Assembly (NCBI GenBank): GCA_958296135.2
Contig: CATQHZ020000001.1
Coordinates: forward strand, 1,088,001 to 1,152,000
DNA length: 64,000 nt
Direction: 5' to 3'
Source: an uncultured Poribacteria bacterium
Lineage (GTDB): Bacteria > Poribacteria > WGA-4E > WGA-3G
Positions within the stretch are counted from its first letter, which is position 1. Every line of letters starts with the position of its first letter. This document shows, piece by piece, positions 31,701 through 36,646 of this stretch. The position numbers were made by a program, and so were the translations under genes. The notes under the pieces are model-generated. The model made no database searches and was not told the origin of the DNA. It saw only the letters and a program-made list of their open reading frames with translations.

Positions 31701-32921
31701 ATGAATAGGCACTTTTTTTACAGGGGGCTGCTGGGCTGTGTGCTGAGCGTTTTCGTGCTTATGCCCATCGCCAGTGCGCAAGAATCTCCCACTACAAAGA
31801 TATACTGGGCGAGACCCGGGCGCATCGGGTGTGCGAATCTTGATGGCTCAAACCCTCAGGACCTGCTTCGTGCAGGACAGGGATGGGTGATGTCTCTCGC
31901 GCTAGACGCTGCTCGCGGCAAAATGTATTGGCGTGAATATGGAGCGGGGACAAATATGATTCGTTGTGCGAATCTTGATGGCTCAAACCCTCAGGACCTG
32001 CTTCGTGCAGGACAGGGATGGATAATTTCCCTTACGCTAGATACGAGTGCTGGCAAAATGTATTGGCGCGAAAAAGGTAAGATTCGTTGTGCGAACCTCG
32101 ATGGAACAAACCCGCAAGATTTGCTCACGGGACTGGTATCTGACTTAGTGCTAGATACTACCGGCGGCAAAATCTACTGGACCGAATTTGACGTGAGCAC
32201 CGACGCAGATAAAATTCGTTGTGCGAACCTCGATGGTTCAAACCCCCAGGACTTGCTCACAGGATTGGCATCCGTATCTAGTCTGATGTTGGACACTATC
32301 GGCGGCAAAATGTATTGGCGCGAAAACGGCTGGAACTTGCGCGCAGATAAATTTCGGTGCGCAAATCTGGATGGAACGGCCCCGCAAGAGCTCGTCACGG
32401 GATTTGATGTCGGTTCCTTCAGACTAGATACTATCGGCGGCAAAATCTATTGGATCAAACATGACTCAAGCACCGGAGAAAACAATTTTCGGCGTGCGAA
32501 CTTGGATGGCACAAATGTCCAAGCCCTCGTCACGGGCTTGGATGAAATTTGGTCTGTCACACTTGATGCTGCCGGCGGCAAAATCTACTGGCGCGAGTAT
32601 GACTCGGACACGCAAGAAGATAAAATTCGGCATGCGAATCTCGATGGCTCAAACCCGGAGACTCTCTTTACGAAGAAGGGATCTCCGGGCATTGTACCTA
32701 TCGTCGTGTTTCGCACAGAAGGTGCCGAGAGCGTGGTTGCTGCGGATGTCAATGGCGATGGGGTTGTGAACATTCAGGATTTAACCTGGGTCGCCTCGCG
32801 TTTTGGGAGAACGGGGCCGGATAGCGCGGATGTTAACGGCGATAATGTTGTTAATATTATGGATCTTGTCTTGGTGGCTGGGGCCCTAGATGCTGAAGCC
32901 GGCGGGCCTAGCGAAGATTGA
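31701..32921 (+). CDS. Secreted LDL-receptor class B (YWTD-like/DUF5050) repeat protein with C-terminal dockerin-like domain
   Basis: Seven KxYW...IRxANLDGSNPQ repeats; DVNGDGVVNIQDL and DVNGDNVVNIMDL. Confidence 0.9.
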   Translation: MNRHFFYRGLLGCVLSVFVLMPIASAQESPTTKIYWARPGRIGCANLDGSNPQDLLRAGQGWVMSLALDAARGKMYWREYGAGTNMIRCANLDGSNPQDLLRAGQGWIISLTLDTSAGKMYWREKGKIRCANLDGTNPQDLLTGLVSDLVLDTTGGKIYWTEFDVSTDADKIRCANLDGSNPQDLLTGLASVSSLMLDTIGGKMYWRENGWNLRADKFRCANLDGTAPQELVTGFDVGSFRLDTIGGKIYWIKHDSSTGENNFRRANLDGTNVQALVTGLDEIWSVTLDAAGGKIYWREYDSDTQEDKIRHANLDGSNPETLFTKKGSPGIVPIVVFRTEGAESVVAADVNGDGVVNIQDLTWVASRFGRTGPDSADVNGDNVVNIMDLVLVAGALDAEAGGPSED

Positions 32922-33295
32922 GACCAGGAGGGCGCGGGGCATCGAGCCCCGAGGTCTCTCCTACAAGGGGACATTGAGACGTGGGAGGTTGCGCCGCCGG
33001 TAGGAGGGACATCCCTGTCCCGATAAGGAATCAGCGAGACGCGGGAGGTTGCGCCTACAGCATCGAGACCAGGAGGTCTCTCCTACAAGGGGACATCGAG
33101 AGGCGGGAGGTTGCGCCGCCGGTAGGAGGGACATCCCTGTCCCGATACGGAACCAGCGAGACTACCGGGGAGGAGTCGAGCCCCGAGGTCTCTCCTACAA
33201 GGGGATATCGAGACGTGGGAGGTTGCGCCGCCGGTAGGAGGCGGAACCAGCGAGACTACTGGGGGGCATCGAGACGCAGGCGGTCTCTCCTACCG
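32920..33295. repeat. Composite REP (BIME-like) array
   Basis: Repeated GGGAGGTTGCGCCGCCGGTAGGAGGGACATCCCTGTCCCGAT and GAGGTCTCTCCTAC units. Confidence 0.85.
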
Positions 33296-33326
33296 AACAA
33301 GGAAGTAGACGTTTTTTTTTCGATAG

Positions 33327-34856
33327 ATGGGGGTGTTATTCATGCTAAACTTGAGCGATGTGCTCAATCCTTCAGCGAATGTGCAGGTGCATGCACACTG
33401 GGATGCGATGGCAGACGGGACGTTCAAACTATACGAAGATTCCCCACAACACGTGGAGTTGTTCAGCCTGTCTCCTGTCTCCCCGGTCCAGGCGTATGAG
33501 GCATCGGCGTTCACAGCCTTTCTCCCACCCTCGGACGTGACGGTGGGAGACGTATGGGAGTTGGAATTGGACAAGGTTGTCCCGTTCCTTTACCAATTTC
33601 ACACTGGGGCGACTGGGAAGTTAGTGCACGGGCAGGAAGGCGCGTTCGCCTGCTTACGGGCCCTTTCATCGGGTTATGCAGATATCGCGTTCCGCATCCA
33701 TGCAGAATTTACGTTGGAGAGTCCGGCACATAGGGAGTGGGCAAAGGCCAACGCGAGCGATGGTTGGGAGCCCCAGGCGCGTTTTATTCCATCGCAGTTC
33801 GCGGGACGCGTGCGGATCAATCTCAAGACGGAGCGGGTTCGCGATTTTTCGCTCTACCTGCCACCCCGCAATAGCAATGTTGATATCAACGCCTTTCGGT
33901 GCGCTGATATGGTATTTGTGCCGCGCATGGAACTTGGTGCCTCTGATAGGGCAGACCGCGGTGAGATTGCGTGGGATAGTGCTATCTCCGAGGAAGCCGC
34001 GCGCAAGGCGTTGGAACTGAAGTTCTACCGATTTGCTCAAATTGCGTGGAAACCGATTGAGGAGGCTGTTGCGTTTGCAAAAGCGGCGAACCGGCCCCTT
34101 CACGCGGTTCTGGTTTGGGGGCCGCTTGACGACGAATCGTGCTGAGCGAATGGCAAGAATTTGAGGGCGGGTCCGCTCTCTTCGCCGGAAGTTATTGAGA
34201 CGCTCAACGCGCAGTTTGTCAATACGTGGGTGCTACTTCGTGAGTTGCCGGCCCTGATAGATGGCGCGAGAGGGGAAGGTGCCGGTCGCGTCGCCGCGAA
34301 ACTCCAAGAGCATTACACCGATTCTGTTGATATTTTGGCACTGACTCCGGAGGCAGAGGTGATTATGCATCAGCCGGAGATGGCACTTATTGGGCGCAAT
34401 AAGGCCCCCTCTTATCTGACACTGCTTCGGCGTTCTGTGGAAGCGTTTGAGGGGAAACCCTTGCACCGCCCGATTAGTTTGGGGGAAAGGCAGGAGGTAT
34501 CAGGCACTTTTCGCGCCCCTGGCGATGGCTATCAGGATTACACGCCGGTTGAGATTGATGCCACCGCGTTTGAAAACGGCGGTGTCCTCCACATTGAGGT
34601 GCAGGTAGGCGACGACGGGGCGGAAGGCACGTGTGCCCTGTTTGATGCCGACACCGAGCTGCCGACAGAAGGAACGCCGGATGACGCGTTGGCTGGCCGT
34701 CGGGCTATTCCGCCCGGTGAAAAGGGACATGTTTTTCACCGTTTCAAACAGGGGCAGTGCTTTCGGCTGGGCGTGACAGGCAGCTGGGAAAACGAGAAGG
34801 GTAGCACCAACACCTTTCGCGCGCGTATTGCTATCGTGCCAAACCCGGTAGATTGA
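33327..34856 (+). CDS. Selenoprotein N (SelN/SELENON)-like protein; in-frame TGA at 34143-34145 read as selenocysteine
   Basis: ORFs 33327-34145 and 34161-34856 share a frame; motifs GAFACL, FRIHAEF, PSQFAG, PRMEL, WGPLDDESC*ANGKNLR...LNAQFVNTW match SelN on both sides of the TGA; start may be ATG 33342. Confidence 0.88.
34146..34186 (+). promoter_or_regulatory. Putative bacterial SECIS element
   Basis: Stem GAGGGCG(34163-69)/CGCTCTC(34174-80) with GGTC loop 24 nt after the TGA; GCGAA/TTCGC can form a lower stem. Confidence 0.75.
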
Positions 34857-34874
34857 TTTGTGGGGCGAGGGGGA

Positions 34875-35282
34875 AACCTGTCGCGCGCGTTTCAAATCTC
34901 CGCGCGCACAAAGGCGAGATACGCTCCTGACATTAACACATCGAGAGGCGGGAGGTTGCGCCGCCGGTAGGAGGGACATCCCTGTCCCGATACGAAATCA
35001 GCGAGACGCGGGAGGTTGCGCCTACCGGGAGAAATCGAGCCCCGAGGTCTCTCCTACAAGGGGACATTGAGAGGCGGGAGGTTGCGCCGCCGGTAGGTGG
35101 GACATCCCTGTCCCGATACGGATACAGCGAGAACAGAGGTTGCGCCTACCGGGGGAAATCGAGACCAGAGGTCTCTCCTACCGGGGAAATCGAGCCCCGA
35201 GGTCTCTCCTACCGGGTGGAACCTGTCGCGCGCGTTTCAAATCTCCGCGCGCACAAAGGCGAGATACGCTCCTGACATTAAC
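34875..35282. repeat. 63-bp direct repeats (34875-34937, 35220-35282) flanking a REP array
   Basis: AACCTGTCGCGCGCGTTTCAAATCTCC...CCTGACATTAAC present twice; the interval holds the same units as 32920-33295. Confidence 0.85.
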
Positions 35283-36646
35283 GCGATGAAAAGCAGCACG
35301 AGCAGTAGCAAATCCACTGCGGCGGTGTTGAAATCTCGGTTGAGGCTGCGTGTGTCTTTAAAGCGCGGCATTGCGGCGGGTTCAACCTTTCTCTGTGACA
35401 TGCCGGTGGGCACGCCGATGAGATGGAGACTCTCCGCATCGTGTCCATCGTTCTCGATGATGAATTCCCGGAATTGGCGGGCGTAAGGCTGAACGTTCTC
35501 CAAGAATTGGAGGTGTCTCTCGAACCCTGTGCCGGCGAACGTCTCCATGAGATGCTGGACGAGTGCTACAGGAGAGATTCGGATGATGGCACGTGCCTCC
35601 TTAACTTGTTGGATTTCCTGTGCTAAGCGTTCTCTGTTTAAGCGTTCATGTTGCTGTGCGTCTTTGGTGACGTACGCTCCCTGTTCTTGCAGGACAGCGT
35701 ATCGTTTCGTGTTTCGGATCCGGATGTATTCGCGATACTGCTCCTTAAGTGCCGTATCAAGTTGTCCCCGGCGTTCCTGAAATTCGGCGCGGGACATTGG
35801 TGATGAGAACCCCCGGACAATGGTGGCGAGGGTGCTCGGCATGAAAACGACGAAGGTTACCCAAGCCAAGAGGAGAATCACGAGACTCACGGCGCTGCGT
35901 TGCATCCGTGCAGAAACGAGCAGGCCTAACGCGAGGAAAAGGCAGACGTAGAGGATTGCGATGATGAAGATGATGCCTAGCCGGCCCCACTCTCCTGCAG
36001 TGAGTTGGACGCTGCGGGACGTGGAAATCACGAGCAGGTTCATCAAGGTGGCGAGTGTGAAAGGGATGAGGAGACTGATGAGCGCGCCGAGGAACTTGCC
36101 GAGTAGCACGGCGTGCCGTGGAATGGCATTTGCTAGCATTAAGCGCAGTGTGCCGCTTTCTCGCTCACCGGCGATGGCATCAAATGTGAACAGCAGCGCG
36201 GTAAGACTCAACACATAGCCGACGATGAACCCCCAATCCACTTTGGTAACCTCTGGGCGGATATTAGCCAAATTGGGTCTGACGGAGGGATAGTGCAGCC
36301 GCCAGAAAGATTTCAGCGCACCCCGCCGCCACGAGTGGGATTCTCCCCGAACAACGTCGGGTATAAATGCCTCGCCGCCTTCGGCACAGAAGTGGAGCGG
36401 TGACGGCGTTTTGTAAAAGTTGCCGGGGCCCTTTTGTGCAAGGGTATACAGGTTGTCTGCCCGCGCCGTTAAAGCATTTCGGGTGTTGGTGATAGCATCG
36501 TGATACTTCTGCATCCGTTTTGGATGTTCGCGGAGATGCGTCACGGCATTGGTGAGCATCAATGCGAGGAGCAGGAGGAGTGTCAAGCCAAAGCGGAGGC
36601 TATTGAGATTCTCGTAAATTTCGCGTGTTGCGATGTGCCAAATCAT
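35237..36646 (-). CDS. ABC-2 type transporter permease, subtype B copy 2
   Basis: MIWHIATRE, FTFDAIAGERESGTLRLMLAN, AYLAFVRAEI. Confidence 0.9.
   Translation of the reverse strand: MIWHIATREIYENLNSLRFGLTLLLLLALMLTNAVTHLREHPKRMQKYHDAITNTRNALTARADNLYTLAQKGPGNFYKTPSPLHFCAEGGEAFIPDVVRGESHSWRRGALKSFWRLHYPSVRPNLANIRPEVTKVDWGFIVGYVLSLTALLFTFDAIAGERESGTLRLMLANAIPRHAVLLGKFLGALISLLIPFTLATLMNLLVISTSRSVQLTAGEWGRLGIIFIIAILYVCLFLALGLLVSARMQRSAVSLVILLLAWVTFVVFMPSTLATIVRGFSSPMSRAEFQERRGQLDTALKEQYREYIRIRNTKRYAVLQEQGAYVTKDAQQHERLNRERLAQEIQQVKEARAIIRISPVALVQHLMETFAGTGFERHLQFLENVQPYARQFREFIIENDGHDAESLHLIGVPTGMSQRKVEPAAMPRFKDTRSLNRDFNTAAVDLLLLVLLFIALMSGAYLAFVRAEI

Follow-up and report, generated by a model that had tools for sequence, protein, structure and literature searches.

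A probable bacterial-type SECIS hairpin behind the in-frame UGA of a selenoprotein N homologue from Poribacteria

Within the 64,000-nt stretch of an uncultured Poribacteria genome analysed here (the window), two open reading frames on the forward strand share a frame and form a single gene if an in-frame UGA (codon 273 of a frame running from 33327 to the stop at 34854–34856) is read through (Table 1). The read-through protein begins with a beta-rich domain at its N-terminus, continues with a thioredoxin-like domain containing the motif S-C-U-A and ends in a beta-sandwich, and its AlphaFold2 model (pLDDT 91.6) is one compact chain with the TGA inside the thioredoxin-like domain; an initial model from 7 sequences, with a pLDDT of 50, was discarded. 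A match of the Thioredox_DsbH type (7tkv_B) was obtained, and searches of the read-through protein against Pfam, NCBIfam and PDB sequences gave no match above the cut-offs, the Pfam search thus showing no EF-hand. A search of the ESM Atlas with a form carrying Gly at the TGA site (P0050) returned only a weak Poribacteria cluster. Conservation among homologues extends to either side of the TGA, and the uninterrupted homologues have Gly or Cys at this position.

The earlier note on this DNA had called the protein SelN-like, and this label was borne out by BLASTP against animal SelN (E-values of 3e-32 and 7e-36), with the TGA aligned to the animal Sec position. A profile search likewise recovered a hagfish protein named 'Selenoprotein N' (3.3e-35) and proteins of wombat, Nematostella, Sanderia and Potamilus, with a sea-spider SEPN1 and a snail protein as two further matches. 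Judging from these alignments, the bacterial protein is truly homologous to animal selenoprotein N. The two share their N-terminal and thioredoxin-like regions, and Sec occupies the equivalent place of an S-C-U-G/A motif in each, whereas the bacterial protein starts at the conserved domain, lacks the transmembrane or EF-hand N-terminus of SELENON, and differs from it by an extra C-terminal beta-sandwich domain and by bacterial decoding. S-C-U-G is named as the SelN redox motif in a passage of PMC12839072; the window protein carries S-C-U-A, and family copies in related genomes carry S-C-U-G-S/T-G.

We counted 399 relatives in bacterial genomes, with up to 13 family copies per Poribacteria genome, and a search with the family profile gave 873 representative clusters, a few of which are animal SelN. 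Gene callers split nearly all of the homologues at the TGA, and many database proteins of 280–304 aa end in ...DDESC. The gene comes from a sponge symbiont, and its human relative is a muscle-disease protein: loss of SELENON causes congenital myopathy, and SELENON biochemistry is poorly understood. Sequencing runs containing this sequence were four from one sample, with no RNA run among those listed. In the literature we found no described bacterial or Poribacteria SelN, and Table S9 of PMC4807772 and the BSepDB family lists could name the family.

Table 1. Features of the selenoprotein N homologue and its hairpin (positions in the window)
Feature	Position	Strand	Basis
Bacterial selenoprotein N homologue, 509 residues with UGA read through	33327..34856	+	ORFs 33327..34145 and 34161..34856 share a frame
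Predicted Sec codon UGA, residue 273, after Cys272	34143..34145	+	Same aligned TGA codon in 124 distinct homologues
17-nt spacer, codons +1 to +6 (A N G K N L)	34146..34162	+	Gapless across the 87-sequence alignment
Stem, 5′ arm GAGGGCG	34163..34169	+	Window letters, RNAfold; 93.8% of cells paired in 87 sequences
Apical loop GGUC	34170..34173	+	G28 and U30 invariant; Gly codon GGT in 79/79
Stem, 3′ arm CGCUCUC	34174..34180	+	Window letters, RNAfold, pairing across 87 sequences
TTCGC, suggested to pair with GCGAA (34146–34150) as the 3′ side of a lower helix	34181..34185	+	Outside the conserved element

The UGA, the hairpin, its GGUC loop and the 24 nt from UGA to loop are letter for letter as first described. 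Between the UGA and the stem lies GCGAATGGCAAGAATTT (34146–34162), and TTCGCC (34181–34186) directly follows the stem, which consists of seven pairs (G-C, A-U, G-C, G-U, G-C, C-G and G-C, hence a single G-U) and is included in the RNAfold minimum-energy structure. Counting the U of the UGA as nt 1, the loop occupies nt 28–31. The additional lower pairing GCGAA/TTCGC suggested in the earlier note did not hold up: the letters of the window permit it, yet across 87 homologues only 37.2% of its cells are paired, and as part of the element it was rejected with a pairing below that of the shuffles (500/500 do as well). As a lone sequence the hairpin is not beyond chance, with a 58-nt fold of −17.7 kcal/mol (z −0.78) that 37 of 200 shuffles equalled in stability, and genome-wide a perfect hairpin of 7 bp with a 4-nt loop stands at +17 after 261 of 162,893 TGA trinucleotides. 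The significance of the hairpin comes from comparison, namely from its conservation, the suppression of synonymous change and its excess over recoded sequences. An Rfam scan of 32500–35600 with E-values up to 10 gave only two chance RsmV matches, located in flanking repeats, and no SECIS family, hence no match to a eukaryotic-type 3′ UTR SECIS.

The comparison covered 111 loci in Poribacteria genomes and other metagenome contigs, which yielded 124 distinct TGA forms, and a hairpin was counted as kept when it had at least 6 contiguous pairs. A lack of hairpin conservation among TGA-containing homologues had been named beforehand as the outcome that would refute a SECIS, and the hairpin was found at the same place in 120 of the 124; in all 120 the loop starts at nt 27 or 28, which is 23 or 24 nt from the UGA. 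The loop was GGUC in 78 forms, AGUU in 22, AGGU in 17 and another sequence in 7. G28 and U30 were each present in 124/124, the latter despite being a four-fold degenerate third codon position, and position 29 was G in 102 and U in 22. One subfamily uses another register, with a 6-bp stem (GAGGRC-AGGU-GUCCUC) that leaves the distance of the invariant G and U from the UGA unchanged.

Changes that preserve pairing were seen at pair 30–41 (G-U in 45 sequences, A-U in 39) and at pair 33–38 (G-C in 69, A-U in 14); in one locus (L040) a C-G pair is replaced by U-A with pairing kept, and in another (L118) G-C becomes A-U by way of two synonymous Leu codons. Covariation, proposed earlier as a check, gave a divided result. 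Across 87 sequences the percentage of paired cells, the number of double-change cells and the covariation score all lay above 500 of 500 shuffles, a test that overstates the signal because the sequences are related, but changes on both sides occurred in only 2 of the 7 pairs, a count matched by 126 of 500 shuffles, and classical covariation is thin because most stem positions hardly vary.

The bSECIS consensus model (Zhang and Gladyshev 2005, bSECISearch), as restated in the legend of Fig. 2 of PMC13188914, allows a loop of 3–9 nt, a stem of 4–16 bp, a UGA-to-loop distance of 16–37 nt and an MFE of at most −7.5, and requires a G at loop position 1, 2 or both, usually as G[G|U]. The window hairpin has a 4-nt loop that opens with GG, a 7-bp stem, a spacing of 24 nt and an energy of −11.0 kcal/mol, all four quantities lying within these limits, and it is located inside the open reading frame 3′ of the in-frame UGA with coding conservation on both sides. 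It thus resembles the model in coding-region site, loop, stem, leading GG, spacing and energy, and the G or U at position 29 of the homologues agrees with the consensus G[G|U]. It is unlike the model in that the lower stem is not conserved and in the unusual invariance of its sequence across homologues with 28–60% protein identity. The SECIS of E. coli fdhF is a stem-loop after the UGA with an apical GGUC loop, the G and U of which contact SelB. Both the GGUC loop and the position right 3′ of the UGA are common to fdhF and the Poribacteria hairpin, whereas the fdhF loop is at nt 22–25 and its stem contains a bulged U, and the Poribacteria loop is at nt 28–31 on a stem without a bulge.

The same genome encodes the components of bacterial Sec decoding, all above curated cut-offs: selB (317.5 bits) with an adjoining tRNA-Sec (78.1 bits), selA (596.2 bits), and selD (350.6 bits), which itself has an in-frame TGA. 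In at least nine other genes of the genome a Pfam or NCBIfam domain spans an in-frame TGA and a SECIS-like hairpin follows; these encode two AhpC-TSA proteins, a multi-HMA protein, a WD40-HMA protein, a thioredoxin-like protein, formate dehydrogenase, a DUF3179 protein, a UGSC protein and SelD. Their loops are GGU, GGU, GGA, GGA, GGC, GGG, UGGAU, CGUGU and GUA, an additional UGA of the multi-HMA gene is followed by an AGU loop, and GG-first loops are found in five of the nine genes and six of eleven UGA hairpins. These hairpins have stems of 5–8 bp and loops that start 19–26 nt (0-based) after the U, whereas the hairpin of the SelN-like gene has a 4-nt GGUC loop that starts at 27, just past this range, and its stem has no sequence similarity to theirs. 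Elsewhere TGA is an ordinary stop, terminating 314 of 1,455 long open frames.

We conclude that the hairpin at 34163–34180 is very probably the bacterial SECIS of a Poribacteria selenoprotein N homologue. The SelB-type SECIS of the original proposal is supported by the agreement with the bSECIS limits, the conservation in 120/124, the codon choice described below and the presence of selA, selB, selD and tRNA-Sec in the genome. Adaptation of the hairpin to SelB decoding would also make the gene bacterial and not host contamination, as had been argued before, which its location in a 5.0-Mb bacterial contig and the 399 relatives in bacterial genomes support. While the UGA occupies the ribosomal A site, the hairpin, which begins 17 nt further 3′, would sit just outside the mRNA entry channel, where SelB, loaded with GTP and Sec-tRNA(Sec), would use its C-terminal domain to bind the apical loop (G28, U30 and G or U at 29). 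SelB would then deliver selenocysteine ahead of the release factor, giving a 509-residue protein with a predicted Cys272-Sec273 redox pair in its thioredoxin-like domain. We infer both that SelB binds the hairpin and that Sec insertion depends on it.

The hairpin might alternatively be a by-product of the peptide L-R-A-G-P-L-S and of codon habits, with no RNA function. This peptide is conserved across the bacteria, even in Cys forms (P0124, P0126), and nearly so in the SelN of Nematostella, so that part of the nucleotide conservation is protein-level, and the lone-sequence fold is not significant. Codon choice argues against such an origin. Synonymous diversity in codons +6 to +11 was 0.17 (L), 0.49 (R), 0.29 (A), 0.00 (G), 0.06 (P) and 0.05 (L), whereas most flanking four- and six-fold codons reached 0.46 to 0.81; the third base of the Arg codon is G or A, either of which pairs with U. 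The hairpin Gly codon is GGT in 79/79, compared with 597 of 1,875 Gly codons family-wide, and other hairpin codons are similarly fixed (CTC in 83/85, CCG in 67/69). When each sequence was replaced by 300 synonymous versions encoding an identical peptide, none of the 300 reached the stability of the window hairpin (−11.0 kcal/mol for the 27-nt segment, compared with −3.55 ± 2.2 after recoding), and across 87 sequences the mean was −10.8 against −3.9, with at most 3 of 300 recodings reaching the observed value in 56/87, which places these homologues in the top 1%. The second pairing register, moreover, arises where the peptide differs. These counts point to codon choice that is clearly selected for RNA structure, and leave the peptide explanation very improbable and already close to refuted. 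Hardly credible at all is that the TGA is a true stop between two genes (33327–34145, and 34161–34856 starting from TTG) with an intercistronic hairpin. The splitting of nearly all homologues at this site by gene callers, into proteins of the ...DDESC type, would fit such a layout, but conservation runs unbroken through the TGA in 124 homologues, the Gly and Cys forms (P0050, P0124) are single uninterrupted proteins, the alignment with animal SelN spans the site, and the compact AlphaFold2 chain places it within the thioredoxin-like domain.

It is also improbable, although less so, that the hairpin is a functional RNA structure that is not, or not only, a dock for SelB, and instead slows the ribosome, hinders the release factor like the animal SRE, or serves mRNA stability or folding. 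The hairpin is not strictly tied to the UGA, because all seven Sec-to-Gly orthologues keep a 6-bp stem, and its spacing slightly exceeds that of the nine other selenoprotein genes found here. Passages of PMC8704476 and PMC1440920 further describe a coding-region hairpin of animal SELENON, over the same codons, as an element (SRE) that promotes recoding and is not the SECIS. The Gly orthologues are, however, close relatives (synonymous diversity of 0.31 in the flanks and 0.20 in the hairpin) and too near to the TGA orthologues to show decay, and the loop invariant is broken in three of the seven (AACU twice and AGUC once, in two independent events) compared with 0/124 TGA forms; a roadblock would not need G28 and U30 to be invariant. 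Moreover, the loop follows the G[G|U] pattern that characterises SelB-dependent elements, and no other conserved hairpin lies in the 16–37 nt range required for bacterial Sec decoding. A metagenome scan seeded with Cys forms gave 18 loci, and the site was visible in 14 of these and was TGA in all 14.

Taking the hairpin as the probable SECIS, its likeness to the animal SRE is a lead. Both are coding-region hairpins just 3′ of the homologous Sec codon in homologous genes. According to the relevant passages of PMC1440920, the SRE starts <10 nt after the UGA, and those of PMC8704476, PMC3541580, PMC1440920 and PMC12839072 describe it as acting together with a 3′-UTR SECIS and SBP2/eEFSec, whereas in the Poribacteria gene 17 nt separate the UGA from the stem, which is the putative sole SECIS. 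Human disease mutations in the SRE (G463V, R466Q and R469W/Q, with Sec at 462 in the numbering of PMC12839072) reach codon +7, which is the Arg codon of the bacterial 5′ arm, an overlap judged by codon position. In a FastTree phylogeny of 110 rows, seven named animal sequences and one unnamed row formed a clade (support 99) that, with midpoint rooting, was nested in a 46-row clade of metagenome sequences; we claim no direction of transfer from this midpoint-rooted tree, whose remaining rows are unlabelled.

A possible but doubtful scenario is that the animal SRE descends from the bacterial SECIS. The gene would have been transferred between bacteria and the stem lineage of animals together with the hairpin that covers its codons +6 to +12, and this hairpin would have been kept as a recoding enhancer after a 3′-UTR SECIS took over. 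The reverse may also apply, with sponge symbionts acquiring the gene by transfer and its animal SRE then being recruited as a site for SelB. If the SRE did come from a bacterial SECIS, it would be a molecular fossil linking bacterial and eukaryotic selenocysteine decoding. Since the hairpin covers the same codons as the SRE, the old question of why bacterial-looking hairpins lie beside the UGA in some eukaryotic selenoprotein mRNAs becomes testable through the mRNAs of early-branching animals.

For the bacteria themselves, the hairpin supports the view that a large protein family, nearly always split by gene callers, uses selenocysteine via the ordinary bacterial route. The bacterial version may provide a tractable model of SELENON, if expressed with its own SECIS, SelB and tRNA-Sec.

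The in-frame TGA of the gene for the selenoprotein N (SelN) homologue, the following spacer and the arms and loop of the hairpin all read in the window as the earlier note had described them, with a stem of seven pairs including one G-U and a UGA-to-loop distance of 24 nt, and the minimum-energy structure predicted by RNAfold includes this 7-bp stem. With an energy of -17.7 kcal/mol (z -0.78) and equal stability in 37/200 shuffled sequences, the fold is ordinary for its composition; across the whole genome, 261 of 162,893 TGA trinucleotides precede a perfect hairpin of the same geometry. Considered by itself, the hairpin is no proof of function.

Hairpin elements and reading frames in the window, and further selenoprotein genes on contig G000:C1 of the same genome
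Feature	Coordinates	Strand	Remark
UGA (TGA)	34143-34145	+	codon 273 of read-through frame
Spacer, 17 nt	34146-34162	+	between TGA and stem
Stem 5' arm GAGGGCG	34163-34169	+	sequence reading
Loop GGTC	34170-34173	+	sequence reading
Stem 3' arm CGCTCTC	34174-34180	+	sequence reading
TTCGCC	34181-34186	+	directly 3' of stem
ORF upstream of TGA	33327..34145	+	mechanical ORF listing
ORF downstream of TGA	34161..34856	+	mechanical ORF listing
Selenoprotein gene L158	G000:C1:3124010-3125161		nine-gene selenoproteome
Selenoprotein gene L157	G000:C1:3118815-3119387		nine-gene selenoproteome
Selenoprotein gene L159	G000:C1:2594471-2595376		nine-gene selenoproteome
Selenoprotein gene L160	G000:C1:3466052-3467632		nine-gene selenoproteome
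Selenoprotein gene L162	G000:C1:4910215-4911210		nine-gene selenoproteome
Selenoprotein gene L163	G000:C1:3622943-3625702		nine-gene selenoproteome
Selenoprotein gene L164	G000:C1:2487883-2488908		nine-gene selenoproteome
Selenoprotein gene L165	G000:C1:1067214-1067987		nine-gene selenoproteome
selD	G000:C1:2864299-2865270		hairpin after UGA

Every distinct copy of the site was collected from all retrieved loci, giving 124 TGA forms (111 loci) and seven non-TGA forms. The hairpin proved to be conserved among the TGA-containing homologues, with at least six contiguous pairs in 120/124 and five in each of the four weaker forms, and in all 120 the loop began at nt 27 or 28, with the U of the UGA taken as nt 1. 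The loop was GGUC in 78 forms, AGUU in 22, AGGU in 17 and another sequence in seven, with G28 and U30 invariant (124/124) and position 29 either G (102) or U (22). The main pairing register was GAGRGCG-GGUC-CGCUCUC, while a subfamily with Val or Ala for Pro used GAGGRC-AG[G/U]U-G[U/C]CCUC, which is two bases shorter, and the distance of G28 and U30 from the UGA was identical in both. Distant Cys-form queries retrieved metagenome contigs with only 28–50% protein identity to them, on which the same 18 nucleotides were present in 11/11 loci with a readable hairpin region, and three additional metagenome loci showed TGA. The UGC-UGA-G context (34140-34148 in the window) was as invariant as the hairpin, with the preceding Cys codon being TGC in 86/87 sequences and the base directly after the UGA being G in 87/87.

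The stem is encoded by the peptide L-R-A-G-P-L-S, which is itself conserved. Synonymous diversity in an alignment of 87 distinct homologues was low at codons +6 to +11 after the Sec UGA (L 0.17, R 0.49, A 0.29, G 0.00 with GGT in 79/79, P 0.06 and L 0.05), while most flanking four- and six-fold codons ranged from 0.46 to 0.81; for Arg in the hairpin just two codons occurred, AGG and AGA, whose third bases pair with U alike. When each peptide was recoded 300 times using the family's own codon usage, none of the 300 recodings of the window segment reached the observed -11.0 kcal/mol (recoded -3.55 ± 2.2), and the 87 sequences averaged -10.8 versus -3.9 kcal/mol when recoded, with at most 3/300 recodings reaching the observed value in 56/87. 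In the same alignment 93.8% of the stem cells were paired; pair 30-41 alternated between G-U and A-U (45/39), pair 33-38 alternated between G-C and A-U (69/14), and one C-G to U-A change was found. In locus L118, two synonymous Leu codons exchange a G-C pair for A-U. The percentage paired, the double-change cells and the covariation score all exceeded 500/500 shuffles, although these shuffle and pair tests overstate the case because the sequences are related, and double changes occurred in two pairs, a count that 126/500 shuffles also reached. The stem is more conserved than covarying.

Seven orthologues of one subgroup (L096, L109, L111, L116, L117, L119 and L120, all in related genomes) carry Gly (GGA or GGC, one base from TGA) in place of the TGA, and these genes are likely to be redox-dead copies. 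The 6-bp stem was present in 7/7, and the loop invariant was broken in 3/7 (AACU twice, AGUC once) versus 0/124 TGA forms, with these three changes representing only two events; with synonymous diversity of 0.31 in the flanks and 0.20 in the hairpin, the Gly forms are too young to judge decay. One of them also lacks the neighbouring Cys (A-S-G), and sister orthologues, 78–81% identical to family protein P0050, retain the TGA. Cys forms were found as the proteins P0124, P0126 and P0127 (all three with S-C-C-G-S-G-K), P0153 and P0244, of which P0124 and P0126 retain L-R-A-G-P-L-S.

The bacterial SECIS consensus, as summarised in PMC13188914 (Fig. 2 legend), comprises a 3–9 nt loop on a 4–16 bp stem, a G at loop position one or two (predominantly as GG or GU), a UGA-to-loop distance of 16–37 nt and a free energy of -7.5 kcal/mol or lower. 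The window hairpin agrees with 4/4 of these constraints: its loop is 4 nt long and opens with GG, its stem has 7 bp, its UGA-to-loop distance is 24 nt and its free energy is -11.0 kcal/mol. In the genome, selB (317.5 bits) immediately adjoins tRNA-Sec (78.1 bits), and selA (596.2 bits) and selD (350.6 bits) are also present, the latter with its own internal TGA. TGA is otherwise an ordinary stop, terminating 314 of 1,455 long open frames. Frames interrupted by a TGA and carrying a hairpin and a Cys nearby were sought across this genome and then passed through Pfam, which confirmed eight further selenoprotein genes with a Pfam domain spanning the U; selD brings the number to nine, and two other candidates matched no Pfam family. 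The eight encode two AhpC-TSA proteins, a four-HMA-domain protein (three HMA with U), a WD40-HMA protein, a thioredoxin-like (thioredoxin-TPR) protein, formate dehydrogenase (FdhA), a DUF3179 and a UGSC protein. Gene callers would split all nine genes, each of which has a hairpin after the UGA. These other hairpins have 5–8 bp stems, loops of GGU, GGU, GGA (three UGAs), GGC, GGG, UGGAU, CGUGU, GUA and AGU, and loop starts 19–26 nt (0-based) downstream of the U. With its start at 27, the loop of the SelN-like gene resembles theirs in style and has a spacing at the long end. Overall, the hairpin is very probably the SECIS of the SelN-like gene, and decoding would follow the ordinary bacterial mechanism. 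The bacterial-type SECIS suggested earlier is supported in this form, without the lower helix: the GCGAA/TTCGC pairing is not conserved, forming in 37.2% of cells, fewer than in shuffles.

The reading frame opens at 33327 and ends with a stop codon at 34854-34856, and its protein gave no match in Pfam, NCBIfam or PDB sequence searches. A large protein collection contained 115 relatives, the named members being Candidatus Poribacteria, and the majority were 280–304 residues long, aligned to the query's first 52% only and ended in ...DDESC, which indicates gene calls cut at the TGA. Scanning one genome per prokaryotic species gave 399 relatives, with 78 of the best 80 loci titled Poribacteria and two 'uncultured bacterium', and 78/101 sampled genomes of the phylum had a match (up to 13 each). 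A single copy is present in the window's own genome, while related genomes contain tandem arrays of two to three TGA-bearing paralogues per 4–7 kb locus (e.g. L071, L079, L091, L100, L132, L133 and L135), and the gene call P0002 fuses the end of one copy with the start of the following one. Domain variants occur at L056, L067, L069 and L086 and in proteins P0097-P0116, P0110, P0126 and P0085: some members have an AhpC/TSA-redoxin-like domain in place of the C-terminal beta-sandwich, P0110 has sigma-70 domains (precomputed Pfam), P0126 a long N-terminal extension resembling an ECF sigma factor by eye only, and P0085 WD40 repeats. At 33327-33400 the window protein begins right at the conserved domain, without the signal-peptide-like N-terminus of members such as P0012 and P0018, and the original 5' end or promoter of the gene may have been replaced by the upstream repeat array. 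Arrays of ~60-nt repeat units, in families of five to eight copies, flank the gene on both sides (32919-33290 and 34908-35217), and the downstream array lies between the two copies of a 69-nt direct duplication (34869-34937 and 35214-35282, 97% identity), which also overlaps the 3' end of a minus-strand permease-like gene (35237..36646). The arrangement has the appearance of repeat DNA inserted with duplication of the target.

The label 'SelN-like' was correct. A profile built on full-length members matched 873 representative clusters (E up to 0.001), including hagfish 'Selenoprotein N' (3.3e-35), wombat, Nematostella, jellyfish, mussel and snail proteins and a sea-spider 'SEPN1', and BLASTP aligned the window protein with those of wombat (3e-32) and Nematostella (7e-36), both alignments passing through ...WGALDDQSC[U]GSGRTLRE.... 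One truncated bacterial fragment carries the IMG label 'selenoprotein N'. The AlphaFold2 model (pLDDT 91.6, 51-row alignment) has an N-terminal beta-rich domain, a thioredoxin-like domain, in which Cys272-Sec273 follows strand 258-263, and a C-terminal beta-sandwich; the best relevant structural match of the thioredoxin-like domain was the Thioredox_DsbH protein 7tkv_B (rmsd 3.6 over 145 columns). Unlike animal SelN, the window protein lacks the EF-hand and membrane anchor. In a FastTree phylogeny of 110 rows, seven named animal sequences and one unnamed row formed a clade (support 99) nested in a 46-row metagenome clade, with the window protein in the other, 64-row clade; with an arbitrary root and labels missing from most rows, no direction of transfer is claimed.

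In animal SELENON mRNA, the Sec redefinition element (SRE) is a hairpin that adjoins the Sec UGA and promotes Sec insertion, according to the relevant passages of two reviews (PMC8704476, PMC12839072), and the relevant passage of Pedersen et al. 2006 (PMC1440920) places it <10 nt downstream of the UGA and notes its resemblance to prokaryotic coding-region SECIS elements. Mutations assigned to the SRE in a section of PMC3541580 are G463V, R466Q and R469W/Q, and with Sec being residue 462 in that numbering (PMC12839072, same passages), the SRE would extend to codon +7, which in the bacterial stem is an Arg codon forming the 5' arm. Nematostella SelN reads L-R-E-G-P-L-E-S at the corresponding site, and we hypothesise that the bacterial hairpin and the animal SRE may be homologous. 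In a search over the main texts of a limited set of papers, no description was found of selenoprotein N from Poribacteria or other bacteria, or of its SECIS. New here are the quantitative case for RNA-level selection on the hairpin, the invariant G28 and U30, whose distance from the UGA is fixed across two stem registers, and the comparison of the hairpin with the other SECIS elements of the genome, and the main interest of the hairpin lies in its testable link to the animal SRE.
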